DNA of 64,000 bases from Massalongia carnosa. Taxonomy: Eukaryota. Position numbers and translations under genes: made by a program. The notes under the pieces were generated by a model. The model was not told the DNA's origin. It saw only the letters and a program-made list of their open reading frames with translations, and searched no databases. Each line of letters opens with the position of its first letter. Position 1 is the stretch's first letter. Shown one piece after another: positions 1 through 18,462 of the stretch. The stretch covers positions 1,178,001 to 1,242,000 of the forward strand of contig OZ287084.1 of the NCBI GenBank assembly GCA_965645245.1, given 5' to 3'.

Positions 1-605
1 GGCCGTTGCAACCAGTGCATTGAGCTCCGCTCGAAGGGCCTCCGCGACCCAAGTTCAACCCTGTTTATGAAGAATGATTGCCGCTCGATCCTAGCTTTGC
101 CGTATAAAGTCTAGCTATAGAGATAACAAATTAATTATGAATCAATAACCGCTTGCAGCTGTCATTCTCTTACCATTTTCGAGACTCAACTAGATGTCCA
201 TTGTAGACTGAGATCCGGGCCTTTTGTCTAACTTGCAACGAGGTTAAAAAGTGCACTCATTGTTCCTTGATGGCGTTCTACAGCGCGAATAGTCTGTCGT
301 GAACACATAAATAACATATATAGAAAACGATTTTATGGTATAACACATTCGAGTTGTTATTTTACGCTTAATCGGGTAAGGCGGCTTGGTATTTTAACAT
401 TTTCTCATTTATAAGGCAAACCTGCCTGTGAACTTAGTAAGTAAAGCCTAACTATAAAAAGTTAGACTTGTAGGCTAAATAAGTAGCGCCGAGTTAACCG
501 GAAAAGGTTAATAAAGGCGAAGGCTAAGCCACAGCACGTGAGGTACTGAGGCAATCGGTCGCAAATATTCAGGTATCTCGGCAAATTCCAATACAATTGA
601 GCCTT

Positions 606-846
606 TGTCAGGGTCTCGACACGGGGACGAGGATCCTCGCCTCGATCGGGGACAGAACGTCTAGACCCTGACAACGCGTCATCGGAGTTATCAGGATAGG
701 AATTTCTTAGGAGTAGGACATCAGAGAGGGGTATATATTAGTCGTTTCGGTTCTTATAGATAGCTAGTTGTCAGTTTATCCATTCTATCCTCGCATGCCA
801 TAGCCCTATAGGGCTCCCTCCCATCGCCTGTCACAATAACCTTACA
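606..846. mobile_element. Probable solo LTR (241 bp)
   Basis: Starts TGTCAGGG at 606 and ends TTACA at 846. Flanks GCCTT (601-605) and ACCTT (847-851) match 4/5 as a TSD. Internal TATATA box. A 15-bp inverted repeat lies at 606-620/659-673. Confidence 0.55.
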
Positions 847-1619
847 ACCTTCGCCAGTCCACCTGAACTATCCCCAGGATCGTCGGTCCTTCGGTTAGCA
901 GATATCGGCCTCCACCTCGGAAGAGGTGAAACTACTAGCCAGCATCACGTAGAGGTTTCTGCTCGTTGCTAGCCGCTGACGATTCCTCTGCGTACATCCC
1001 TCGAATCTCTTACGAGTCCATTACTGCTATGTGGTGCGGTGGCCGATGGACTCATGGCGACTTTTGGAGAAACAGGTAGCGATTCTAGACATATTGTATG
1101 AATCGCATCGGCCTTTTCTACCCCGTGTTTCCTTTATCATTCCTTCATACTCTTTTGTAATGTTGTCGATGTGATCAAGACAGCCGAGGTAGACGATGAC
1201 ACCGACGGCGCGAGCAGACAGAAGGATGAGGATGATTTCTTGTCGCTTTCTTGGCGGATGACTTCCATGTTCCTTATGCAGAACTGCGGTTGTTGACGAA
1301 GGTGGACTAGTAGCGGAGTCGGAGGTGGAAGAGGCTGAAACGAAGGCTGAAATGGAGGCTCTGCTAGTAAACACGTCACGGTCTCCATAAAGAGACGAGA
1401 ATGACTAGCCAGTCCCCGGAATAGACGCCTGGCTGTCTGTAGCATGGTGGCGGTAGCGGAGATGGTCATTAAACACGCCGAAAGGTTGAATGGGGGCCAA
1501 CTAGCTGGCGAGATGAAGCGAAGCAAGATATGAAATTGTCAAGTGTGTGCGCTGGCACTTCTCGGATCCTTAGGGGGTGGTCATTTGAGGTTAGATTTCA
1601 TCTGATCATGAGAGTACTT

Positions 1620-1790
1620 TGTGACGAAGCGAGATAGTGAATAGCTTTCTACCATTGCGCCACCTGTCCTTCCCGACCAAAAGGCACAATACTTAGTCCG
1701 CAGACCAAGCTCTATTCTACTATAACTGGGTCTCCTGCTATGTTTGCTGTAGGTCCTGCCGTCCGCACCACGCTTGGTCGAACCGTTACA
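1620..1790 (-). mobile_element. Solo LTR (171 bp), family A
   Basis: TGT...ACA termini with a perfect 5-bp TSD TACTT (1615-1619, 1791-1795). About 125 bp match the reverse complement of 15102-15208 joined to 15736-15760. Orientation is tentative. Confidence 0.85.
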
Positions 1791-1944
1791 TACTTCTTCA
1801 TCTCTTCACATTATTTATATCAGAGTGCTTTGTACACAGTCATGCATCGCTAGAAGGGATTCAGTGTTACTGTTTTTTTAAAGGTTTATGGTATCAGTAT
1901 TTCTTTTCAGTAAAACGTCTACTCTTTTCATCCGCTCTATTCAT

Positions 1945-3792
1945 CTATTCGACTCGTTGATGATACTCATTCAAGGAGATACCAAACACTCCGTCCAACG
2001 ATGGACGCTGACGTTTCACTGGTGAACGACTGCGAAGTCGCCTCCTCGTGCTTTTGGCGATCGTCCCCATCATAACTCGTAAATTTCCTGCTTCCCAGAA
2101 TCGGAGAATTTGCATCGTTTGATGATACTTGCTGGTTTTGCCTACAGAGAAAACACGAGATTAGCGTCATGTAAATGTAGCCGAATAGCGGAGCACGAGC
2201 TTACAGTGCAACCTCTCCAGCTCTATCAATTCTTCCTCGATTCTTTCGGTTGTCCATCCAGATGTGGTGAGAACGATGGCCAGATAATTGTAGCCCTTCG
2301 CATACGGCCAACCTTCGTGACTTCCGGGAATGTCAAAAAGGGATTTGGATACGACCATGTGATAGATTTTAGAGTATCGAGATTTCCCCTCCGCTTTGAT
2401 GATACGTGCTTTATGTTTGTCAGTGTCGCAAGCACTACAGGCAAGGAATTCGATTCCGAGACGGTTCTTGTACCGAGTGGCTTGGTTCATAATGGATATC
2501 ATGCGATATCCCAGGGCTCCGGCAAGGTCTTCAAGCTCAAGGGCTGGCAAATGTTTTCCCTGTAGGATTTTCCTACAGTCTCCGTGAACTCGATGATTCT
2601 TGGCCACACAGTCTTCACCGGGATTGCTGTTGAGATATTCCACGGCTAATCGTTTCAGACGATGATTGGCCTCGGAGGTTGATAAGATGAGGGAATCTGA
2701 AAATCTAACAGAACCATGATGACCCAGGTTGGTGGAAGATCCACCTTTTCCAGTCATTCTCAGGTTATCCCACTTCTGCTGATAAGCCGTTAGGGGAAAC
2801 CCAGTTCGAGCTCTCCATTCAACGCCCCACATATCGTCCTTGGCGGCGAATGAAATCTCATTGTTTTCCCGTACATCAATTTCCTCGACCAATGTGTCAT
2901 GGATTGCCGCGACCAGTGCTGCAAACGTCGGTGAGGCTAAGGCTTCATTGCCTTCGTTCGTGAGTAAATCAAGCCCCTGGATTTCTGTTTTGATTAAGGC
3001 CTGCGCAACCCCTGTCGCATAACGTGAACCGCAGCATCTGCCCATCGAATCACTCACTGGCCATGATAGCAATTGCGTCTCTTCATCGACCCCTGCAAGT
3101 GCGGTGATGTTGAGACATGGGCTTTGTACCCAGCCGCCTCCATAGCAAGCAGTGGTCATTAAGGTAACATTGGGATTCGAGTTATGCCGCAGCAATGCTT
3201 CTTGAAACTTCTCTATGGTCAATATATCGCACTTTTCGGCTTTTCCCGTCCCTCCAATTGTTATCGAGTAGCTAAGGACTGTGCCGTGGCCGAAGATCAT
3301 GATTAGCATGGGCCTGTTGGTACCTTTAACTTCTTTGCTGGCGTCTGCGACGTAAGCAAGAAATCTTTCTAAAAGATCCTTTTCTTGGAAGACCAGTACG
3401 TCTTCGACGTCTTTTCTCATCGTTTCGTCCAGGACCACCCTTCTATTGTTAGTTCTCGGATCTCCGTGCGAGAATTCTTTGTACTTTTCGATAAGCTGCC
3501 TTGGATCCACGCAGGTCATCCAATACTGTTCTTTGGCAGTTCCTTGCAACATATGATGAAATAAGTAAAAATCTGAGAAAAACCAGCCGTCAGATTCTGG
3601 ACTTGCGTTGTTCCGGTAATCATTGGGCCCACAAACCCCAATGACTATGGTGTCTACGGTGACGATAGGAGGACACTTAGAGTCAAAAACACGGCCTTGC
3701 AGGCCCCCAAACGGTTCACCAGTGTTCTTTCCTATGCCGCCGTACTTGGCGGGCTCAACCAACACATTTGATGCTGTGCCTAGGTACGCCAT
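1945..3792 (-). CDS. Putative clan CD (caspase/legumain-fold) cysteine protease, ~594 aa, 2 exons
   Basis: Long ORF 2167-3822 with first ATG at 3792. A GTAAGC...GCTAAT...TAG intron at 2142-2204 extends the frame to TAG at 1945-1947. Motifs LIMIFGHG and TLMTTACYGGG place His and Cys 47 aa apart, each after a hydrophobic strand. Confidence 0.7.
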
Positions 3793-4611
3793 TGTTTGGA
3801 GCCGGCGATGAAGAAGGATCACAAGCTGGCGTCGTAAGAGATTGAAGGATGAAATTGGGCACGATTCAAATGATTTGGTAGAGTGGGACTCTTAACGATG
3901 GTGAGAAAAGGTATGGGCACAGGCTTGATGAATGGAAGGGTGCGATCGTTGAAGCAGGTATGAGAATAATCTTTTACTAGAGAAGGGTTGGTTGAGCAGG
4001 TGAATCAAGGATGAGTATGAATCTTGCTGTTCCTAACGGTGAGCCTCTTGCATGTAAGGAGTTTACTCTCACTTGAAGTTGGAAACTGGAATTCGCGCTC
4101 ATATAACGAGGTGCGAAATCTAACATGTGAATGCCGTTGTGAATCCTTCCCGATCAAGCCGGTTGGGAAGGAACCTCTTATTGTCCCGAACTATTGGGCT
4201 TAGAACCCCATCTTGATTTAAGAGAACTTTTGGATTTCAAGAGATATGTGAAAGAATCAGCACATGAGTATACAATAGCCATCCACTCCCACAAGGTAAC
4301 ATGTTAGTGTCCATGTATCGATATCGTCTTGTCATCAAAGTCTGTACAAATGCTGGTGGCATGAGATAGTTCATTCTTCTGCAAGAGGAATGATTAGTAG
4401 CATATGAGATGAAGACTGTCGAGGACCTAACAGAACGATTACCGCACCGAAAAGTCCTTGGAAGGTACACAATAGAGAGATGTCCATTTTTATCATCGCT
4501 TTCGCTCAGTTTGATCAAAAGATCGACAGCAGCATTCGTTCTTTCGTTTTTATTGATCATTTAATATTTTTAAAACGAGCTTGTTTGCAATAAACATGTT
4601 CGATATATTTA

Positions 4612-7253
4612 GAGTACGGATACGTGGACACCCCTTTGGTTACCTGGACACCCCCCAGTGATACACGGACACCCCCTTCCTAGAATAGGTAAGAATCAAG
4701 GGTTCAGGCCCCTCACTTACCCACTTCGGGGTAAGCTCCCGGGCGCATATCGGGGAAATTTTTTCCTTCACCTTTTGAAAGTGGTCGGGAATTTCTGAAA
4801 CGAAGTCGATTGGCACTGTCTTTGCAAATCAGACTCTGATTCTAGAAACTAAGCCTCATTTGGTCTAATTAATGATGATAACCTCCTCATCTCCGCTTGC
4901 TGTCGCTGTCCCCCCCCCCCCCTGTCGCCGTCCCCGCCTCCGAGTCATTTGTAGTCAGCTTATCTGCCAATCCCCTTGTTATAACCCCTCCTCTAGCCCT
5001 ACCTCCCCGTCCCCGTCCCCATCCCGATCCCCGTCCCCGTCTGCCTCGTCCACGACCAGGTGCCGGGTCCGCTCGATGAACGGCTGATTGATCTGCATCC
5101 GGGTCCACCCGCTCGAAAAGGGAAGGATCACGATTAGTAGATGCCTCGAATGCTTGCTGTCTTCTATTCAAATTCTCCGCACCTGGAGGTCTGCCCCTTG
5201 GTCTAGCAACTTCGGGTGCCTGAACCCGAAGATAAGGATTATCAATAGCCACACGGGCTGTCCTATCAAACCTCCAATGAGGATGAATATCTTCCAATAG
5301 CAACTTTCCCCCCCCATCCCCATACAATCGTTCCTGAATCTTATGACTGCACGGAAGACCCATGGTTAAACTGAACGTTCCAGTACAGGCCGGAATAGCT
5401 GTTGGTTGACCAACCAAACGTTCGTATTGAGGCATTATCTTTCTCAAAGCATAGGAAGTGACGTATGGACTGATTTCCTGAAAGATAGGTTTGCGAATAT
5501 CCATAGGTAGTCGCACCTTCGCTTCATCAAGACGAATCAGATGATTGTGAAGTTCATTGATCAATAGAAGATTGATTCCGTCCACCACCGTCTTAAGATC
5601 TCCAGATGATGACCCTAGCTGTCGCTTAAGTACTGCATGCCCACCTTCACCTCGAGAGGTAGTGGTGGTTTCGAAATGAGTAATCATACTGGTATAGCAC
5701 TTGACAAAACGATGTCGGAAGGGTATGTAGATGTCGTTTAGATATTCCACACATTGATCCTGACCCTGATACTGAATCCTGAATCGCTCCCATGACTCCA
5801 AAAACTCTGGTTCTGACGAGGCATAAACGACCGTTTTCCAGTCAGCGAAGAAGGAGTCCCACGCCTCTTTGGTATCGAAGCTCTTCTTGCAATTGGTCAG
5901 GACGTTATTATTGATGTGCCATAAGCAAAGCAGATGATTGGTTGCGGGGAAAACATCCTCAATTCCAGCTATCAGACTCTTTTCCATGTCCGTGACTATG
6001 ACGATCGGGTTAGGAAGCATCATCCCATCATACATACCTCGCAATTGCTGCAACATCCAGGTATAATCAGACGTGGCTTCCTTGGCCATGAAGCAAAATG
6101 CCACATAGAAGTTGGTATGTAGGGCGGTTTGACCACTGATGATCAATAAGGGCATCTTATATCTGTTGGTTTTGTAAGTGGCGTCCATCACCAACACCTC
6201 GTAATTCGTCTTCAATAGTCGTTGAGAACAGCCCTTAATAAAGAATAAATGAGTTATTCTATCTAGATCATCCTTTTGCATCTGATACGTCCAATCTCCT
6301 TGATCCAGCTCTCGGATTAATGCCTGAACCGGAGTCAATGGGCCGAGTGTCTCGCGACGAAGCTGTGCTTTGACGTTGTAGATATCCCGAGGTTTGAATA
6401 AGGGATTGATGATGTAGGGATTTTCTGGATCGTCAAAATTGATTCCCGTCGTCGGATCAGCAACACGAAGACTAGATAAAATCTTGAAAGGGGCTGTTTG
6501 CACGATCAGAGCTCGGGAAATCTCACTTTTAACCTCTTTCGTCATCGCCAATTTCCTCAACGCTGGATGAGCACCAGCGAGGGTAGAAGCATGATTATGA
6601 GTCGATTTGACCACCTCCAAAAACCAGATACCACTGTCGTTTTCTCGTGTGGCCACACAAGAGAAAGGGCATTCAATTCGTCGGCTACCCGTATGTCGCC
6701 GATCCTGACCTCTTGGTCCGTCGGTTTTTCTTCCTCGATCACATATCAGCCATGCCTTTCTTGTTACCTTAAGTTTCGACTTCTTGGTTCGACCCAAAAC
6801 GACTGCGTATCCTTGACGACCAGCATGCTCATTGACTCGTAGAACCAGGTCTTCCAGACTTTCAAAACTTTGTCCATCCTCGGGGGGTGCAAGTCCGCCA
6901 GGGGGTAGAGGGCCAGGTGGTCGGGGTGGAGTAGCTGGTTCATCTTCGAGGGGTGCAAGTCCGTCAGGAGGTGGGGCAGGAGGTGGGGGGTCAGGAGGTG
7001 GTGCAGACATGATAAAGTGTCAAAATGTTGGTGATGATGATGTTTACGAAGTGCCAAAATGTTGGTGTTTACGGTTGAAAAAAAATTCCCGAGGTGCACC
7101 CTCGGGAGCTTACCCCGAAGTGGGTAAGTGAGGGGGCTGAACCCTTGATTCTTACCTATTCTAGGAAGGGGGTGTCCGTGTATCACTGGGGGGTGTCCAG
7201 GTAACCTCAGGGGGTGTCCAGGTAGCCAAAGGGGTGTCCACGTATCCGTACTC
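4612..7253 (-). mobile_element. Mutator-like (MULE) DNA transposon, apparently intact
   Basis: ~130-150 bp TIRs (GAGTACGGATACGTGGACACCCC... / ...GGGGTGTCCACGTATCCGTACTC). 8-bp TSD TATATTTA at 4604-4611 and 7254-7261. Single transposase ORF. Confidence 0.95.
4887..7010 (-). CDS. MULE transposase (FAR1/WRKY-like Zn domain, DDE domain, SWIM-like motif), 707 aa
   Basis: Motifs CPF...HNH, MDATYKTNRY, IVTD, CLWH and GLPCSH. C-terminal AT-hook RPRGRP and an RG-rich tail. Confidence 0.93.
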   Translation of the reverse strand: MSAPPPDPPPPAPPPDGLAPLEDEPATPPRPPGPLPPGGLAPPEDGQSFESLEDLVLRVNEHAGRQGYAVVLGRTKKSKLKVTRKAWLICDRGRKTDGPRGQDRRHTGSRRIECPFSCVATRENDSGIWFLEVVKSTHNHASTLAGAHPALRKLAMTKEVKSEISRALIVQTAPFKILSSLRVADPTTGINFDDPENPYIINPLFKPRDIYNVKAQLRRETLGPLTPVQALIRELDQGDWTYQMQKDDLDRITHLFFIKGCSQRLLKTNYEVLVMDATYKTNRYKMPLLIISGQTALHTNFYVAFCFMAKEATSDYTWMLQQLRGMYDGMMLPNPIVIVTDMEKSLIAGIEDVFPATNHLLCLWHINNNVLTNCKKSFDTKEAWDSFFADWKTVVYASSEPEFLESWERFRIQYQGQDQCVEYLNDIYIPFRHRFVKCYTSMITHFETTTTSRGEGGHAVLKRQLGSSSGDLKTVVDGINLLLINELHNHLIRLDEAKVRLPMDIRKPIFQEISPYVTSYALRKIMPQYERLVGQPTAIPACTGTFSLTMGLPCSHKIQERLYGDGGGKLLLEDIHPHWRFDRTARVAIDNPYLRVQAPEVARPRGRPPGAENLNRRQQAFEASTNRDPSLFERVDPDADQSAVHRADPAPGRGRGRRGRGSGWGRGRGGRARGGVITRGLADKLTTNDSEAGTATGGGGDSDSKRR

Positions 7254-7262
7254 TATATTTAT

Positions 7263-7475
7263 TGTCAGGACTCGGGTGTGGGAGCGCTAAATCCAACGGC
7301 TCTTTCCGACCGAAGCTTCGGAGATAAGCTTCTAGAGCCGGATGGAAACTTCGAGAAGAAGGGCAAACGGGCATATAGATTTCACATTCTTCTTTGTAGA
7401 TAGATTTCTCTTCTTCATGCTTAGTCTCTTAGGTAGCTGACTACTATTCGTCTTCCCTGGATAGTGGTTCTTACA
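7263..7475 (+). repeat. 5' LTR of the gypsy element
   Basis: Direct repeat of the split 3' LTR; runs TGTCAGG...CTTACA. Confidence 0.95.
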
Positions 7476-7741
7476 TTAGACTAAGCATCTTCTTTAACCC
7501 TGCTATCCTGAACACGATATTAAACCGTTCAACCAGGAAATTAGAAGAAGAACCCGGAACTTAGACTAGAACCAGATCATAGGACCTTAGAAGCAAGGAT
7601 TTCTAGGCCACCAGAATTACCAGAATCAAAAGAAGAACTCAGACCCAGAAGAACCAGAACCCAGGATCGTAGAAACCAGGATTTCTCGGCCATCGAATAG
7701 AAGATCACAAGATAAGAACACCCCCAAGAAAGAAAGAAGAA

Positions 7742-9037
7742 ATGCCCCGAGTAATCAGCGAGCCTCGAAGGAGTAGGCTCACTATGGACGAACCCATGGA
7801 GGGCCGACGTGAGTCCATTGTCCCTAATATTATTGATGATGACTCCCCATATAGCATCGATTCCGTGGATAGACTGAATGAATTTGTCCGCCAGGACCCC
7901 CAGCGGGTGGTGGAAATGATAACTGAGTTGAAGACGGAGTCCCGAACGAAGACCCACCTATTGAACAAGGTGGCCGAAAGATTCAATGAAACGTTAGAGA
8001 TAGCCCGGACCCTTCGCGATGAGCGGGACTCGGCCCAAGAGAAATTGGATAAAGCTAAGGTGATAATCCAATTTCTTCAAAACACCAACATATCGTCCGC
8101 AAGCACCGCATCGGCCGAGAATGTGCATACACACACGACCACTACCGCGTCAACACCTGCCCCCGAAGGAGTTGGCAAATCTTCCAAGCTTCCTGACCCA
8201 CCCATTCTCGAAAATAATAAAGACGACAACTTCGAGGACTGGCTATCTAGCATGCGAAATAAGCTAGAAGGCAATGCGGATTGGTACCCTACCGAGGCCA
8301 TGAAAAAGGCATACGTACGGACTCGGGTTGGTGGTGAGGCAGTCAAGCATATAGCCTCTAGATTTAGAAAGGAGTCTACCAAACCATTTACCACTGCTGA
8401 AGAAATTTTCGATGATTTAAACCGAGTATATGGTGACCCTCACAAGGAACAAACAGCACTGCGAGAATTCCGCGACCTTAAACAAGTGGGTAAATATCGA
8501 GAATTCCATGCCTTCTGGTCAGAATTCCAACGCTTAGCCAACGAACTTGAATATTCCGAAAAGACCCTACTAAATGAGCTCCGCAACAAGATGAACTTTG
8601 AGCTCCAGAAGATGCTAGCCGTCGAGGCCTACAAGGCCACCGATTTGTATGAATTCGCACGCCTATGCATGCATACTGATCAGACCATCCGCGAGGTTGA
8701 GACCAAGACGAAAGGCTATCGAAAGAACTCTGTTGGCCCCTCAGTACCTATCGCAAGCACGGCCGGTGGGACCACCTCCATCGTAAAGGCCTCCACCCCC
8801 GCATTAACCCGTACTCCCGCAATGCCTTCCGCCACCAGCAGCCGATCTTCAACGCCCTTTATGGCCCGAGCCCCCCATCCCGATCCAATCATGGAGAAAA
8901 GAATGAAGGAAGGAAGATGTTTTAACTGCGATCTGACCGGGCATATGGCCAAAGACTGCCCTCAGCCTAGAAAGGGACGGGTTAGCGAGATGAGCGCAGA
9001 AGCAGAAGATTCGGGAAAAGACGCACCTCCGTCATAG
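7742..9037 (+). CDS. gag: Gag protein, 431 aa
   Basis: KLPDPP, a retrotransposon gag core (LKQ...EFQRLA) and a CCHC knuckle CFNCDLTGHMAKDC. Confidence 0.93.
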   Translation: MPRVISEPRRSRLTMDEPMEGRRESIVPNIIDDDSPYSIDSVDRLNEFVRQDPQRVVEMITELKTESRTKTHLLNKVAERFNETLEIARTLRDERDSAQEKLDKAKVIIQFLQNTNISSASTASAENVHTHTTTTASTPAPEGVGKSSKLPDPPILENNKDDNFEDWLSSMRNKLEGNADWYPTEAMKKAYVRTRVGGEAVKHIASRFRKESTKPFTTAEEIFDDLNRVYGDPHKEQTALREFRDLKQVGKYREFHAFWSEFQRLANELEYSEKTLLNELRNKMNFELQKMLAVEAYKATDLYEFARLCMHTDQTIREVETKTKGYRKNSVGPSVPIASTAGGTTSIVKASTPALTRTPAMPSATSSRSSTPFMARAPHPDPIMEKRMKEGRCFNCDLTGHMAKDCPQPRKGRVSEMSAEAEDSGKDAPPS

Positions 9038-12000
9038 ACGCGGCGGGGGTAGATGAGTTGGTTATCACATCTTTCTTTATGGAGGATGATTTATTCGATG
9101 ACCATCCAGTAATGGAAGATTGTATCGTAGGAAATAAATTTAATACGAGAGCGATGATTGATACTGGATCTACTGGTTATTGTTTTGTTGATAGACTAAC
9201 TGCGCAGGAAATATGTGAAAAGGCTAATATCTCACCGGTGACGTTAAATAGACGGAAAGAGATAAAGGCATATGATGGAAGAAAAGGCAAGCCTATTACC
9301 CAGGCCATTTATCCATCTCTGAAAATTGGAAATCATACCGAGAGCTCAACACCAATGTTGATCACCGAGCTGGGCAACAAACGATTATTCTTGGCAAGCC
9401 TTGGATGCGAAAACATGGTGTTAGCTATCATGGGCATACGAATTCGATTTCTTTTCGTCCCGATCATTGCAATCATCTAGGTGCCCCCGAAAGGCCTTTC
9501 CCATCGTCGCCAATCAGGAGAGAAGAACCGGGCTCAACAAAGGACACCACGCCTATATTCCAACCAAAGAAGATATTGAAAAGAGACGAATCCGATGAAA
9601 AGAATCATAGCAACTCGAACCCGATTTCAGTTCGAAGATCAAGAAAGGAAGATATCTTGAAGCAAAAGTCTTGGAGAAAAGACGCCGAGAGCGAAGAAGC
9701 CCTGGATATAGCGATGATAGGTGCAGACCCATTTAATGTATTAACGAAACAAAAGGATGTCGAGATATTTGCAGTCTCGCTGAGAGATATCAACTTTGAA
9801 CTAGCCAAGGGAGAAAAGCCAATCACCGATCCTAAGACCATAGTCCCCCCCGAGTATCACGATTTTCTTGATGTTTTCTCTAAGGAAAAAGCTGATGAAC
9901 TGCCCCCTCATAGAAAGCATGACCATACCATCGAATTGCTAGAAGGTAAAGGACCCGGGCATGCCCCGCTATATAATATGTCAGAGGGAGAACTCCTACT
10001 GGTCAAGAGATATTTGGAAGAAAATCTGAAGAAAGGATTTATTGTAGCTAGCTCGGCCCCATTTGCCTCGCCGATACTATTCGCCAAGAAACCGAGTGGA
10101 GGACTTCGGTTCTGCGTCGATTATCGAAAGCTAAACGAAATCACCAAAAAAAATCGATATCCCCTACCTCTGATATCTGAGATAATGTCTCGATTGGCTA
10201 GGGCTAGATTTTTGACAAGAATAGATATTCGACATGCCTTTAACCGACTTAGGATGAAAACCGAAAAGGACGAAGATCTCACAACCTTCCGCACGCGATT
10301 TGGGTCATATAAATCTCTAGTATTACCCTTCGGACTGACCAACGGCCCTGCTACGTTTCAGAACTTCATCAACGATACCTTCTTAGAATATCTAGACGAA
10401 TTCCTAATAGCCTATCTGGACGATCTCTTGGTTTATAGTGAAACCATGACTGACCACCGAAAACATGTTCGAAAAGTTCTACAAAAGCTTCGAGAAGCTG
10501 GTATTCAGGCTGATGTGGATAAATGCGAATTCCATGTGACCGAAACAAAGTTCCTAGGAGTGGTAGTCGGACGGAATGGGATCAAGATGGACCCTACCAA
10601 AATTGAGGCAGTCGTCGAATGGGCCATCCCTAGGCATCTTAAACAGGTGCAGGCCTTTCTAGGATTTATCAACTTTATAGACGTTTTATCAAAGACTTCT
10701 CCAAAATAGCCAAACCCCTCGTACATCTAACTCGAAAAGACGAACCATTCAATTGGACCCCAGCCTGCCAAGCAGCTTTTTCCGAATTGAAAAGACGGGT
10801 GACCGAGGCCCCGGTCCTCGCGCATTTCAGCCCAAGCCGAGAAACGTTCGTGGAATCGGATTCATCTGATTATGTGTCAGCCGGAGTATTATCGCAAAGA
10901 GGTGAAGATGGACTTATCAGACCAGTAGCCTTCTTTTCAAAGAGCCTGTTGCCAGCCGAATGCAATTATGAAATATACGATAAAGAATTGCTTGCAATAA
11001 TCAAATGTTTCGAGCAATGGAGGCCTGAGCTGCAATCCACCGAGCTCCCAATCAAAGTGTTTACCGACCACAAAAGCTTGGAATATTTCATGACAACCAA
11101 AAAGCTAAATAAGCGACTGGCCAGATGGGCTGAATTTCTGGCCGATTTCAATTTTGTCATCACATACCAAGCTGGAAAATTCCATACAAAGGCAGATGCA
11201 CTAACTAGAAGACCAGGAGACAGGCCCGAATCAGAGGAAGATGACAGGCAAAGGCATCAACATCAGATAATCTTACCTCTCGAAAGCCTAGACCCTCAAA
11301 TCCAAAAGGAAATGGGGTTTGAAATGAACGAGATCAACGCGGAAAAGTCGAAAGATCCGCTCGAGAATAATGCCAAACTATTTGTCCCCGAAGAAAAGAG
11401 AATGAAGCTGATACAGGAAGTTCACGATCAACCAGCCGTTGGCCATCCGGGAATAAAGCGGACCTACGAGATGATGAAGAAATTCTTTTTTTGGCCAAAG
11501 ATGAAAGGGACCATAGAACAATACATTCGAAATTGTCATACATGCAAAAGAGCAAAAGCTCCAAGGGACGGTTATTCCGGACTATTAAATCCGCTACCTA
11601 TACCAGACCGGCCCTGGACAGATATATCAATGGATTTCGTAACTGGCCTACCTGAAAGCAAAGGTCATAATGCAATATTAATGGTAGTAGACCGATTTTC
11701 CAAGATGCATCATTACATTCCATGCACCACGGACGAAGAAGGGACAACTGCCGAAGAGACGGCCCGAATGCTAATAAAACATGTATGGAAATTGCATGGC
11801 CTACCGACCACGATAATCTCAGATAGGGGACCTCAATTCGTATCGCTAGTATGGAAATCGCTATGCGTAATGCTGGGAATAAAAGCCAAGTTATCAACCG
11901 CATTCCATCCCGAGACCGACGGTCAAAGCGAAATATCCAATCAAGAAATGGAGCGATATCTGAGAACCTATGTCAATTATCAGCAAGATGACTGGACAGA

Positions 12001-12715
12001 GTGGCTATCGATGGCCGAGTTCGCATCAAATGCCTGTGTCTCAGCTTCAAGTGGATTATCTCCATTTCAGGTCAACTATGGGTTTGAACCGAGGATGAGC
12101 TTCTATCCGATTGACGCATCTACTGGATCGGCCAGAGAAAGAATATTGAAAACTCGAGCAAAAAATATCGGCCAAGCAATGGAGAAAATCTGGGAATTCG
12201 GAAAAGAAAACCTAGTACGAAGCCAAGAAAGTCAGAAGAGATTCGCGGACAATCATCGGGAGGAGGCACCAACCTATAAAGAAGGAGATGAAGTTTGGCT
12301 ATCAACCAAAAATATCAAAACGGAAAGGCCTTCGAAAAAGCTAGATCATAAGATGATCGGACCGTACAAGATATTAAAAGCTTTGGGGAATAGCTATAAG
12401 TTAGATCTTCCAGCATCGATGAAAATACACGATGTTTTCCATTCATCATTACTCCGACCAGCAAGTAAAGACCCATTGCCCGGACAAATACCCCCGCCTC
12501 CACCACCGGTAATTATTGACAACGAGGAAGAATTTGAAATTGATGATATTTTGGATTCAAGAACTTTCAACAAGCTACAATACAAGGTAAAATGGAGCAA
12601 TTACCCACCGGATAACACATGGTATCCGGCCGAAGATTTTGCGAATTCAAAAGAAACTGTGGAAGAATATCATCGGAAATATCCAAAGAAGCCGCGACCG
12701 AAGCTAATCACATGA
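9019..12715 (+). pseudogene. pol: Pol (protease-RT-RNase H-integrase-chromodomain) with two 1-bp frameshifts
   Basis: Protease IDTGSTG, RT LRFCVDYR and YLDD, RNase H ESDSS and DHKSL, integrase HHCC and GPY, C-terminal chromodomain (EFEIDDILDSR...YKVKW). Frame breaks near 9383 and 10676. Confidence 0.92.
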
Positions 12716-12865
12716 CAGCGATCAGGAGCTCGCTAACCAAGAGGGGGGGTAGTGTCAGGACTCGGGTGTGGGAGCGCTAAATCCAACGGCTCTTTCCGAC
12801 CGAAGCTTCGGAGATAAGCTTCTAGAGCCGGATGGAAACTTCGAGAAGAAGGGCAAACGGGCATA

Positions 12866-14762
12866 ATCGTGCCAAAACACTAAACCCCAACCGAGTCAGG
12901 GTCTAGTGCCCGACGGTCTACTGACGCATACAGTCTACTGACGCACTTTTCCCATTTTCACTACCATTTCTGCTACAAATCGAGGACAACAACGGTTATG
13001 CAGAAACTGATTGATTATGACGCTGGTAAAATAGCTTCGCTTGTCTGGGCATCGATCTGGCGATTCTTTTATACCTTTTGTCCAGGGCAATCTGCTTCTT
13101 TTCAGCAGCTAGTGTGGCACGTTCATAGGCCAGTCTGGTCTTTTCCACCTCGTTCTGACAACGTTTCGAGGTTTTGGCCCGTACATCTCCTACAGTTATG
13201 ACCCCTCCCTTCTGGGCGACCTTACCATCCAATTTTCTACGGGCCGCCTTCGCGATGGACTGTTGTTGACTGGCTCGAAGGTCCCGCTCAATAATCTGAC
13301 GTGCATGCGCATTGGAAATAGAGCCCTTCACAAATCGATTCACATGACAATCCCATTCATTGTCCAGCACGTTGTATTTCTTCAAACTCATTCGAAGGTG
13401 TAAGCCATATTCAACCACCTCTTTAGTCGTGCGGGGCGTTCTGGCGAGCAGAGGGGCTGACAAAGGTGGGGGGGTAGCAAGTCTCCGAGTTTGAATTTCC
13501 TCCAGCTTTCGAATTACCACATTGGGGTTATAAGGCACCAGACCCATGTTTCTGAATGACGATAATATGGTAGATGAGGTGAATGTTTGATTTCGCATGC
13601 GCTGAAAAATGGACAAAAGTCCAGTTTGTCGAAATCTGCCCCTCCGAGTCGCACCATCTCGTCAATGCCTTCGGAATGATAATTTTTGAACGGCTGAAAA
13701 CATCCTACATCCAATGGCTGAGTGAGATGTGTTGAATGAGGAGGCAAACGAAACAATTCAATGTGATTTCGTTTGGCATATGTAAAAAACTCATATGTCA
13801 TATGAGATCCATACCCGTCCATGATCAACATACGCCAGGCCCCTACCTGACCCTTTCGACTGTGTTTATCGAAATGTTTCAACCAATCAATAGCCAAATC
13901 ATCATTGGAATAGCCGGTAGGACTAGTAGTCAACAAAACATCGTCATTCAGATCGTTTTGTTGTGTCCACTTTTCGAGAATCAAAACCCCCGCTATAATC
14001 ACCATGGGGGGAATGTTTCGCCCCCCAGCACTAATACACTCACACGAGGTGACATATTCTCTATTATCTGGATCTGTCAATAGCAAGGGCTTTCTGGAGT
14101 GAGTTGATATAACCCAATGAGCCCTGTCACAGCCAATTCGAAAGCCCATTTCATCCATGTTCCAAACGTCCTCGTCCGCTATTCCCCGCGTCTTTCGCGC
14201 AGTTCGATATGCTTCAAAATACTCGAGCCTGTCCTTTGCATTGTGCGCGTGTTTTCGCTCAGCGGCCAGAGGTTTGTGTTTTCGCTTGAAAAATTGAGGA
14301 TGACGATTGAGGAAACGTTTGGTCCAGGCCTCGCTGACGTGAGGGGGGGGGATGGAGGCGTCTAAATGAGCTTCTCTTAGTAGATAATTAGCAGCCCCCC
14401 GAACCATTGAAAACCTGGCTGATTGTTCGGCTTGATCGAGCATCACAATATATTCACAAAGGGCCAATTCTTGTTCATCAGATAAGGCCTTGTTGGGGCC
14501 AGATCGACCGATGCGCGAACCCCCTCCAGCAAGTCGTCTTTGAAGCGTACGAATGTCGACATCGAAATCAAATGGCTACTGCGCGTATACTTCGAAATTC
14601 ACCCGTGTTCCACGCGTTTATAGCATCGACAATTTGATCCTCCTTATTAGAATATGAGTTAGGCATGGTGGTAGTAGATGAACGACGTGGTGAACTGTAT
14701 GCGTCAGTTGACCGTTGGGCACTAGACCCTGACTCGGTTGGGGTTTAGTGTTTTGGCACGAT
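12866..14762 (-). mobile_element. pogo/Fot1-like (Tc1-mariner) DNA transposon
   Basis: 69-bp TIRs at 12866-12934 and 14694-14762 with 2 mismatches. TA TSD at 12864-12865 and 14763-14764. Confidence 0.96.
12996..14666 (-). pseudogene. Fot1-type DDE transposase with two frameshifts
   Basis: ATG at 14666, an HTH region, and motifs WNMDEMGF, LIMDGYGSH and LPPHSTHLTQPLDVGCF. Frame breaks near 14571 and 13617. Confidence 0.9.
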
Positions 14763-15101
14763 TATAGATTTCACATTCTTCTTTGTAGATAGATTTCTCT
14801 TCTTCATGCTTAGTCTCTTAGGTAGCTGACTACTATTCGTCTTCCCTGGATAGTAGTTCTTACATTTATTTACTTTTTTATAAGATTATTCGCTCAATAT
14901 GTGTTGAATCCAACTCCTATCAGTACAATGAACATAGCCACGCGCGTGACAGAAACAGGCGGACACCAAAATTTCCCCGCACTACCCGCGTGCTTTATAA
15001 ACATTCATTCGTCTTTATTAATAACGAGTTAGTTTAAAGCGATCTCATTTCAAGTGATAGTGTATATTTGGAGGTGACTGGGGCTAAGCGAGTATTCTAA
15101 C

Positions 15102-15760
15102 ACATAGCAGGAGTCCTAATTATGGTGTTATGGTAGAATAGAGTTTGGTCTGCGGACTAAGTATTGTGCCTTTTGATCGGAAGGGCAGGTGGCGCAATGG
15201 TAGAAATCTGTCACGATTCTACTCGGCACAACCTCGGCACCGCCTAGGGCAATCGTAGATGGAACACGCAGGCACTTTCGATTTCGTTCCCGCAGCTACT
15301 AGAAGATTCCATGACGACTATACCACATGGGTACTAGCGCATTAGAGGATATATAGGATGCAGGTTCTGGTTATCGATTGTCTTTTTCCTCTTCATCTTT
15401 ATTGTATTCGTTTCTAGTGTCCCTATGACTTGTGTTGAAATAGGTATATGACTATGGCTATATGGCTATGTAATAATAAAGGTATGTATGACCGTGATGT
15501 TAAGGATGAAGAGTTGCTAGGCAGCAATCTTTTCCTATTACTGGTCACCCCCTTCTAAGCGATGTGATCTTATCTTATCTTGGGACTAAGCCTAATGCGG
15601 CATCTACGGTTCCGTAGATGATCTGTCCATCTAGGACAGCCGTAGGTGCTATGTTCATCGTACTGATAGGTGTTCATTGTGCTGGTAGGAATTGGATATT
15701 CAACAACTTGTCTCTAGGTAGATGATAACAAAATCTTTTCACTATCTCGCCTTCGTCACA
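15102..15760 (+). mobile_element. LTR of family A (inverted relative to 1620-1790), interrupted by another solo LTR
   Basis: 15102-15208 joined to 15736-15760 is the reverse complement of ~1620-1743 and ends GTCACA. Its other end and TSD were not found. Confidence 0.75.
15209..15730. mobile_element. Solo LTR (522 bp)
   Basis: TGTCACG...ATAACA termini. Perfect TSD AAATC at 15204-15208 and 15731-15735. It cleanly splits the family A LTR. Confidence 0.88.
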
Positions 15761-16130
15761 AAAATGAATAAAATTGTTTGAAATCTAAAAAGTAAATGAT
15801 AAAAATACAGAACATGTTTCTCCGTTTGTAAAGAATTGTTTAGGCGAAACAAACGTGCAATTCATTGAAAGTCAAAAAAACTACGTAAATATGCATGTGA
15901 ATAACTTTATTTTATATAAGCATTAGGTAGCATTTTCGTTGGGAGATGTTGGAGAATTTTATCATCCGCCTCGTACTGTAACAATAATACTCGACTGACT
16001 AAGTTCAATTTTAGTATTTTCATCGGATCTATATCATTCTTGTATGTGCGAGTAGTCATGAAAAGATTTCTTTATTTAACTTCATGATGTTTTACCTTCT
16101 CATTTGAGATATGGTATTTTTCTATATATT

Positions 16131-18462
16131 ATGACGAAGAAGAAGAAGAAAAGCCTTTCCCCTGTTGCGCTTAATGGCACAGTTAACAGCAACTCTTCAT
16201 CATCCCCCACCACTCCTTCACCCGTTGACACCGAGTCTTCTTTTACTCCCAATGACAGCAAGCCTAGAAATACGAATCCCTTGAGCCCATCTTTGGTAAT
16301 ATGTCGCAACAAGTACGCAGATTTCCTTCTTGAATAGTCCATTTTCTATCCCTAATATCTTTATATTCAGACATTGGCGTTACATATCCTCCTTCCATGG
16401 TCCCTGGCTTCAATTGCCCCCCGAAGTGCTAGAGTCTCTCGCCTACAGCAACTTAGCCTCACCACGCCCTCGTCCCATTGATCCATCCGTATTCTTCGAT
16501 CTCGTTAGAGTTCGACGTCTTGTCGAGGATGCTACAGATCTTGCTGTCCGAGCAGCTAATGGTACTACGGCTTCCACCCTCAGCAACTCTCTGAACGCCG
16601 GCAATGGCATGTATGGAGGCGGCGGTTCAGCGGCATTGGGCTTGGGCATTGCGGGGATGGGAGGACCCAACGCAAAGCTGAGTAAAGAGAGGAAGCATAG
16701 GATGCGAGAGCTTGCCACGCAAAAGCTGTCGCGGGCCTACCAGTTGGATGAAATCGCTGCGAGTGTAGCTACGATGCAATCAGCCTCCTCCCTTGAGCAA
16801 GTCGCAAAGCTGGTATTGCTGCGTAGCAAGGATGATTCTCATGCCAAATATGTTCACTTTTTTCATGAAAAAATCCCTTCCCGGATGCTTGCACAATGCA
16901 CCAGCCTTGACCCGCTGGACGATATTATACACGACCGACCAACCGAAGGCGCCCCTTTACGGACTCGGGGTGTGACCAGAATACTGAAAGAAGACTTTGT
17001 TGGGGCAACTCGAGATTTGACTGATGGGCTTGCATTGTCACGTTACAAGAAAGCTCAGCATAATTCAGATAATGCTCGGCTTGGACTTTTTAATGCCTTT
17101 GGAGTTATAGAGCCGCAAATCAGCGAAAGGCACAGCGCTCCGTTTGTCTCCAAGAAAGACGGGGATGAGGAGCCAAGCAGCCTAGAATCTCAGCTACTTT
17201 TTCATCGCGCTGGGGTGTATTTAGCACTTGCTTGTCAATATGTGACTGCATCGCTTGAAGATTTAGGATCTATACCTACTATTTCTACAGTTCCACCTAC
17301 TACTAAACCTAAATCGGAGCTTGCTACTCATCCTACACCAAAAGGGGATTACGATAGGCGGCAGGCAGCACGTAAGATGGTGAAGACGAATGCTAAACGG
17401 GCTCTTCGAGACTATATAAGTTTTCTCTCAAATTTCGAATATACGCCCGGACTATCGGCTGAATCAGTTCATGAATACCTTAACAAGGTAAATATTGCAG
17501 CAGCTGGAGCCACTCAATCCAAACAGGTGGCAACGAACCGATTACTTCAGAAAACCGGAAACTCCGGCCACAAAAATGAACGCATGAACGATGCATTGAT
17601 TTGCAATGATTCGGCCCCAATCCATGACGGGGGTATAGCCATGGGCAGCGAGTTCCTATATCCAGCTCTTCCTCGGCCAGAGGTCTATCCAGTCTCTTCT
17701 TTATTCTCGGCTTGCCCTCCACCCAGTTTATCGCAATTTCTAACGTCACAAGCCCTAGTTGTAAAAAATTCATCTTTGAATCATGAATCCCAAAACCAAC
17801 TTGCCAACCAATTATGGGCGCAAGCAGATCATCACGAAGCGGTATCATATCACCCTCTCCTCACAGACGCACTTCATTCTTTATTGCTTTGCCATTGCCT
17901 CATCCAAACTTCATCAAAGGAACACCTTCGCCACGCCCACATGGCAGCCCGACTTGCTCGGGTCTGCGACGGTTACCCTGTTTTTTTAGCAGCCCGTTCA
18001 CCAAGTCGCGCAGATTGGATTGAAGTAGTACGGCGAACCAACAATTGGGTTGGCTTGCAGCAATCTTGGGAAAGCCTGTGTACCCCTGCCCAATTGCCAG
18101 GGCATGCCGGTTCAGCCAAGACAGAAGAGACCGATGGAGAAGCCCAAGAGCGCTGCAGGCAGGAAGCCATCATGGATGCGTTGGCCGACGAGAGAGTCCA
18201 CAACGAAGCGAGCTTCCATGCCGGTGTTGCTGCGAGGGTTTGCCGCGCCGAGGACCGGCAACATGAAGATATGGGCCAGAGCGCAAAGGTACGGGTCCAA
18301 GATAATGGGAAAGAGTATCCGATTAGTACCGAGAGAGCTAAAATCATTGCTAAATGGGTGAGGGAGGCACCACGGACGGTTGAAGGATCGGGAAGGGCCA
18401 AAGGCAACGCAAAGAAGGAAATACGGAAACAGCTTCGGCAAGATTTGCTCACAGCTCTGTGA
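16131..18462 (+). CDS. Conserved fungal protein of unknown function, 2 exons
   Basis: ATG at 16131. An intron at 16313-16370 joins ICRNK to HWRYISSFHGPWLQLPPE, followed by a long open exon. Confidence 0.8.

Follow-up and report, generated by a model that had tools for sequence, protein, structure and literature searches.

We found that a gene at positions 3792 to 1945 on the minus strand of a 64,000-nucleotide stretch of the Massalongia carnosa genome (contig OZ287084.1, positions 1,178,001 to 1,242,000; hereafter the window) encodes a protein of 594 residues that is almost certainly a member of protease clan CD. Judged from sequence comparison and a structure model, the protein appears to represent a new family within this clan, one that has a prolegumain-like build and falls outside legumain, GPI8, metacaspases and CHAT proteases in tests of membership. 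Our favoured, though tentative, explanation is that it is a self-blocked protease serving as an intracellular switch that would cut a host target in non-self defence or genetic conflict. The window gene is one of hundreds, and its interest lies in the family.

Gene structure

A sequence-only reading of the window had proposed an intact two-exon gene, and the spliced translation bears this out, running from an ATG at 3792 to 1945 with zero internal stops. Exon 1 (3792-2205, residues 1-529) encodes an N-terminal arm, the catalytic domain, a linker and most of a helical domain, as recognised from homologues, and exon 2 (2141-1945) encodes a basic tail, residues 530-594, and the stop codon. They are separated by a 63-nucleotide GT-AG intron (2204-2142, GTAAG...TAG); the minus-strand frame at 2167-3891 holds 574 open codons. 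The splice model, drawn from DNA and homologues, is supported because the donor GT and acceptor AG are retained in a paralogue on contig C19 of the same genome, the intron has diverged more than exon 2 between the two copies, and annotated homologues, for example that of Lobaria, run on into the same tail. Most searches and the structure model used the exon 1 read-through (P0001), in which residues 530-541 are intron-derived.

Predicted catalytic dyad and fold

The defining feature of clan CD is a His and a Cys at the C-terminal ends of neighbouring parallel strands (PMC4357240). In the protein encoded by the window gene, His169 (3286-3288), the predicted catalytic histidine, lies in the motif IMIFGHG (GHG at 168-170) and Cys216 (3145-3147), the predicted nucleophile, lies in MTTACYGG (TACYGG at 214-219). 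Each is preceded by a predicted strand (residues 162-167 and 209-213, respectively), and 378 more residues follow Cys216. When the protein sequence was shuffled 20,000 times, the paired motif arose once; it is present in 94 of the 133 rows of a wider family alignment (A2). In that alignment His169 is conserved in 127 rows, the Gly after it and Cys216 in 128 each, and the complete dyad in 124. The His-Cys layout described in the sequence-only reading is a property of the family.

The predicted catalytic domain (residues ~45-345, 2758-3660) has an alpha/beta/alpha fold that matches caspases, metacaspases and legumain, so that the structure comparison proposed in the earlier reading returned a predicted caspase-hemoglobinase fold. 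It is followed by a variable Gly/Ser-rich linker (residues 345-371, 2680-2760; length 18-79, median 31, in the 133 members), which scores low in predicted local distance difference test (pLDDT) at residues 351-359, and by an all-helical domain (residues 372-529, 2205-2679), which was modelled as part of the whole protein and is also recognised from structure comparison and family sequences. In the model the linker would correspond in position to the legumain activation peptide, and the helical domain to the LSAM domain. The 18 best structural matches are zymogens that align end to end at a root-mean-square deviation of 5.4-6.2 A. The predicted fold and architecture are well supported by the model. 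We consider it very probable that the protein is proteolytically active, and probable, with less confidence, that the linker and helical domain cap the active site.

Comparison with known clan CD proteases

The clan CD proteases commonly recognised in fungi are metacaspases, GPI8, separase and CHAT proteins. The closest likeness of the family is to the legumain zymogen (MEROPS C13; PDB 4fgu, 4nok, 5h0i), with which it shares the predicted fold, the positions of the His-Gly and Cys, and the predicted order of catalytic domain, linker and C-terminal helical domain, the end being in register with LSAM. However, identity to legumain is only 10-13%, and the family, which is multicopy and accessory, lacks a signal peptide and has an added basic tail. 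Where legumain has Arg44 and His45 in the S1 pocket, the corresponding helix-1 residues of the family are Trp70 and Phe71 (Trp in 121 and Phe in 110 of 133 rows), in a register set by eye against the GPI8-type sequence of M. carnosa, and legumain specificity for Asn/Asp is not expected. The family also differs in having Thr214 two residues before the Cys, and its helical domain has a single conserved Cys.

Since several of the C13 enzymes with the closest folds are ligases or the subunit of the glycosylphosphatidylinositol (GPI) transamidase, the protein could be a transpeptidase or peptide ligase, like GPI8 and the plant asparaginyl ligases, and not a hydrolase. We regard this as the most improbable of the alternatives, given that identity to these enzymes is only 10-15%, that the protein lacks a signal peptide or membrane helix, and that no precursor-peptide or biosynthetic gene recurs beside it. 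GPI8/PIG-K itself is a single-copy core gene product with a signal and a membrane helix, which the family does not have, and the genome encodes a separate GPI8-type C13 protein on C2. The metacaspases Yca1/MCA1 (C14B) have an acidic S1 pocket with Asp two residues before the Cys, whereas the family has Thr in 114 of 133 rows; they also have a long N-terminal prodomain, which the family lacks, and not its C-terminal helical domain, and a separate C14 gene lies on C6. The earlier statement that the protein resembles neither a housekeeping metacaspase nor GPI8 stands.

CHAT proteases of gasdermin clusters and NLRs, as described in PMC8851545, share the clan CD dyad and are likewise accessory genes in filamentous fungi. 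The genome has three CHAT loci elsewhere, and the family profile matched one such stretch with a probability of only 0.2%. A weak search among proteins longer than 1,267 residues gave no match for a fusion to a sensor domain (TPR or NACHT). Pfam has no model for the family and gave no match to the query. Among the 75 rows of a first alignment (A1), weak matches were obtained to C13 in 3 (best E 2.4e-4, short of the Peptidase_C13 PF01650 cut-off), to C14 in 2 and to CHAT in 0.

The wider family

Of 8,000 proteins scored in a word-seeded search, 83 reached E<=0.001. Among those with names, the closest come from lichen-forming fungi (48-59% identity), followed by others including Geoglossum (29-36%); we take the former to be Lecanoromycetes and the latter to include Eurotiomycetes and Leotiomycetes. 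A1, which comprises the query and 74 of the 83 (one identical and eight partial sequences were dropped), has His169 in 71 of 75 rows and Cys216 in 69. A profile built from A1 and searched against clusters at 50% identity returned 1,832 at E<=0.001, 1,221 at 1e-10 and 527 at 1e-30. Among the best 150 of the 1,832 clusters, 140 representatives were new; both dyad residues are present in 90 of the 98 of these sized 480-720 residues. Organism names were obtained for 11 of 20 representatives looked up: ten are filamentous ascomycetes, among them Alternaria, Grosmannia, Thelocarpon, Emmonsia and several Teloschistales; the eleventh bears the label Carpinus and is presumably fungal contamination. The ESM Atlas places the family in unnamed Ascomycota clusters, with C13 on 14% of members in one, and automatic database names for some entries are 'Peptidase C13 family protein' and, once, 'CHAT domain-containing protein'. 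At the level of search listings and abstract openings, no published description of the family was found. One member, P0113, has lost the dyad and has two helical domains.

Predicted cellular location

By a crude hydropathy test, the query has no hydrophobic N-terminus (maximum hydropathy 1.11) and no membrane helix, and an N-terminal hydropathy above 2.0, as for a legumain-type signal peptide, was seen in only 1 of 129 members. The basic tail noted in the sequence-only reading holds RRRLRSRSPVKR in exon 2 (2011-2046, minus strand), a conserved S/T-P-x-K/R motif. Among the 72 tails of at least 45 residues, 51 carry a motif of this type, as compared with a mean of 5.4 for shuffled tails, and 55 have a net charge of at least +5. 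RRRLRSRSPVKR may combine a nuclear localisation signal with a site for a proline-directed kinase. The protease likely works in the cytosol or nucleus.

Copies in the genome and likely transfer between species

The M. carnosa genome (52 Mb, 25 contigs) holds five family loci: the window gene on C18, one on C19, two on C7 and one on C2. The C2 copy is a pseudogene with stops, frameshifts and a repeat inserted in the active-site strand; the four intact copies all lie in transposon-rich stretches. The window and C19 copies are 86% identical in amino acid sequence, with a nonsynonymous divergence (dN) of 0.065, a synonymous divergence (dS) of 0.50 and a dN/dS of 0.13, which in a codon comparison shows strong purifying selection on the gene. 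The two C7 copies are near-identical to one another, are 31% paralogues of the window gene and lie inside a large inverted duplication (413-481 kb versus 2,249-2,302 kb, and 224-230 kb versus 2,504-2,510 kb). Taken as a whole (~224-481 versus 2,249-2,510 kb), this duplication is 98-99.8% identical with differing transposon insertions, may be real or an effect of assembly, and contains twin DUF3435 captains and TPR, patatin and family protease genes. In a quick tree the C7 copy stands apart from those on C18 and C19, and Aspergillus falls in three places, as does Teloschistales.

One cluster at 90% identity (P0065) has 29 members; the 15 listed include A. alliaceus, A. tamarii, A. bombycis and A. 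caelatus together with A. felis, A. fischeri and A. fumigatiaffinis. The A. felis copy is 98.1-98.4% identical to three of the first four and 92.8% identical to that of A. fischeri; the copy in A. bertholletiae has ~40% identity to all others compared. Presuming that these species belong to sections Flavi and Fumigati, the cross-section identity of ~98% indicates recent horizontal transfer, which these sequences make likely, contamination or mislabelling being the alternative.

Stand-alone copies of the helical domain were found at one metagenome locus, L039:2172-11815 (JGI24891J29808_1000002), where two intact proteases that are 39% identical alternate with three protease-less genes. The latter encode 330-350 residues, with the helical domain first (E 1.3e-19 to 7.2e-27) and then a weakly similar second unit. 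They show that the helical domain is used modularly, and they are candidates for a decoy, antidote or adaptor. Helical modules of a protease are also encoded alone in the CARD-only and PYD-only regulators of animal caspases; the likeness is one of analogy only, and no sequence link from the helical domain to death-fold families was detected.

The cross-section identity and these neighbouring genes would both suit a selfish toxin-antidote system carried on giant mobile elements, in which the protease domain would act as poison and the helical domain as antidote, in cis or as a separate gene. The C7 copies lie near patatin and TPR genes, which are among the cargo types carried by Starships. A 1,631-bp cargo gene of an Alternaria Starship bears the annotation Peptidase_C14 (PMC11162782 supplement), which may or may not point to this family; the PMC12256816 supplement, as far as covered, gave no match to five query terms. 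We nevertheless think such a system distinctly unlikely. No captain lies near the C18 or C19 copy (the nearest DUF3435 match to the latter is >1.3 Mb away in a first-look search whose model may miss captains), and by that search neither copy occupies a Starship-cargo position. Homology between the two loci ends at the stop codon and ~400 bp upstream without common element ends, the C7 pair is explained by the inverted duplication, and a dS of 0.50 implies long residence. DUF3435 gave 69 matches (exon pieces) at ~20 places on at least 14 contigs, as in a Starship-rich genome.

Neighbouring genes

A scan of metagenomes gave 23 family loci. We compared neighbours across 11 of these and four loci of M. 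carnosa, entering eight near-identical loci (L025-L032) as one and omitting duplicates and three short loci. Over these 15 loci, the common non-family neighbours are transposons, antisense frames and one WD40 pair, and the surroundings vary between core genes and, at L024-L032 and L034, repeat borders rich in AT. The loci show a multicopy gene with differing neighbours and not the single-copy syntenic core gene that would have spoken against the earlier reading; gasdermin or NLR genes, among the neighbours suggested there, did not recur over these loci.

The sequence-only reading had considered an executioner coupled to a gasdermin or NLR, of the HET-Q2/CHAT kind, with its partner elsewhere in the genome. 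The clan CD fold suits this, and PMC8851545 reports that clan CD proteases activate fungal gasdermins. A NACHT gene lies ~9 kb from the C19 copy with TPR arrays 15 and 46 kb off on the opposite side (NLR-type genes at 9-50 kb overall), and a hydrolase-TPR gene and a patatin gene lie 25-35 kb from the C7 copies (NLR-type at ~35 kb); these are raw distances, given without the background density for transposon-rich regions, and the window copy has no such neighbour. However, ~80% of gasdermin genes are reported to cluster within 10 kb of their protease (PMC8851545), and 57 flanking frames scanned with Pfam included no gasdermin, no gasdermin query or model having been employed. The protein shows neither a CHAT match nor a TPR/NACHT fusion. 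Because the gasdermin-linked proteases in the accessible texts of PMC8851545 and PMC12881547 are S8 or CHAT and mostly clustered with gasdermin, and the same portions mention neither C13 (PMC8851545) nor legumain (PMC12881547), we hold this coupling to be very unlikely. Of the earlier interpretation, the accessory clan CD protease with a candidate role in conflict remains, and the gasdermin or NLR coupling recedes.

A proposed self-blocked intracellular switch

In the explanation that we favour, the protease would arise, as legumain does, from a precursor that blocks itself, with the linker and helical domain holding the dyad shut. Opening might occur when a partner displaces or cleaves the cap, or through self-processing, and would not be driven by vacuolar acid because there is no signal peptide. 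Once released, the protease would cut a host protein in the cytosol or nucleus, with the basic SPxK tail perhaps acting as a phospho-regulated nuclear signal, and the output may be defence or genetic conflict. Such a switch gains likelihood because the family has been duplicated, lost and probably swapped between species; birth and death, likely transfer, a transposon-rich setting and cap-only genes alongside speak for defence or conflict. The explanation is weakest as to purpose.

Several observations weigh against it. The structural model is poor at the substrate loops (pLDDT <50 at 223-235 and 242-261), the zymogen matches deviate by ~6 A with the helical domain modelled within the whole protein, and chance matches occur among helical bundles. 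Sequence searches gave no connection to LSAM, Pfam Legum_prodom matching none of 75 members and none of 14 queries with the domain; the helical-domain profile gave nothing under E 0.3 against the PDB, and charge contrast across the family is weak (medians -7 and -1). Stand-alone helical-domain genes occur at 1 of 23 metagenome loci and nowhere in M. carnosa, the nearest DUF3435 captain on C18 lies ~400 kb from the window copy in a first-look model search, and no gasdermin, NLR or other partner recurred over the 15 loci. Several homologues sit among core genes (TAF5/Med11, Sec1, MYST, Crb2), and strong purifying selection is compatible with an ordinary regulatory job too.

The last points, together with the lack of a constant partner, would also suit a plain regulatory role: the same capped protease could be a nuclear or cell-cycle regulator that performs limited proteolysis of a chromatin or developmental protein, the extra copies being dispensable duplicates in transposon-rich regions. 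The conserved SPxK tail and the presence of the family in many classes of filamentous ascomycetes also suit this role. It is nonetheless rather unlikely in our judgement, as neighbours differ at each independent locus, all four intact M. carnosa copies are in transposon-rich regions, and deep paralogy, a pseudogene, a tree that splits genera and near-identical copies across Aspergillus sections, with relatives only 23-59% identical, are not what it would lead one to expect.

The family, large and additional to those commonly recognised, with the architecture of prolegumain, an altered S1 pocket and no signal for secretion, is a candidate for regulated cell death or genetic conflict in fungi, and it bears on the origin of the legumain prodomain. 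An unlikely extension is that filamentous ascomycetes possess a third, so far unrecognised system of caspase-like death or conflict: a legumain-type zymogen inside the cell, in which the protein's own death-domain-like cap would be both brake and signalling module, whose cap-only genes would be trans decoys, antidotes or activators, and which would spread by duplication and horizontal transfer.

The surrounding transposon nest

The gene had been described as stranded in a transposon nest and as the only recognisable intact non-transposon gene in the first 16 kb; both descriptions were confirmed, no second such gene being recognised in 1-16000. The nest comprises a Mutator-like DNA transposon (MULE) that lies upstream of the gene (4603-7262, minus strand) and has long terminal inverted repeats, a long terminal repeat (LTR) retrotransposon (7260-14866, plus strand) in which a Tc5/pogo element (12863-14765) interrupts the right LTR, an upstream Copia element and solo LTRs. 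The solo LTR directly downstream of the gene (1620-1790) is 171 bp long, has TG...CA ends and is flanked by a TACTT target duplication. Within 1-8000, read depth peaks strongly in the bin that contains it, and copies paired ~400 bp apart on C21, C18, C13 and C1 resemble a miniature LTR element.

Upstream of the ATG, a non-coding region (3793-4429, minus strand) is likely the promoter. Positions 3793-4191 are common to the C19 paralogue, and 3885-4429 also occur, at 86% identity, without an adjoining protease on C12 (95821-96387) and C20 (1566480-1567046), two contigs that are 99.5% identical there over 12.3 kb. An Ngaro/DIRS-kind retroelement with split direct repeats of 364 and 150 bp (C19:112991-117931, L015) is inserted immediately upstream of the paralogue on C19.

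Between two solo LTRs, the single-copy segment 852-1613 has two short overlapping minus-strand frames, one Ser/Thr-rich with a hydrophobic run (1027-1404) and one without a Pfam match (1137-1538), and is possibly a gene remnant. In the 60 kb beyond the left end of the window, downstream of the gene, only transposon-looking frames were seen; three of the four scanned with Pfam are retroelement frames and one has no match. The first long non-transposon frame past the nest (16300-18462) has 720 residues and no Pfam match at E 1e-4. A 51-bp tandem repeat array lies in the upstream Copia element (C18:1171082-1172602, L011), with copy numbers that differ in the C7 copies.
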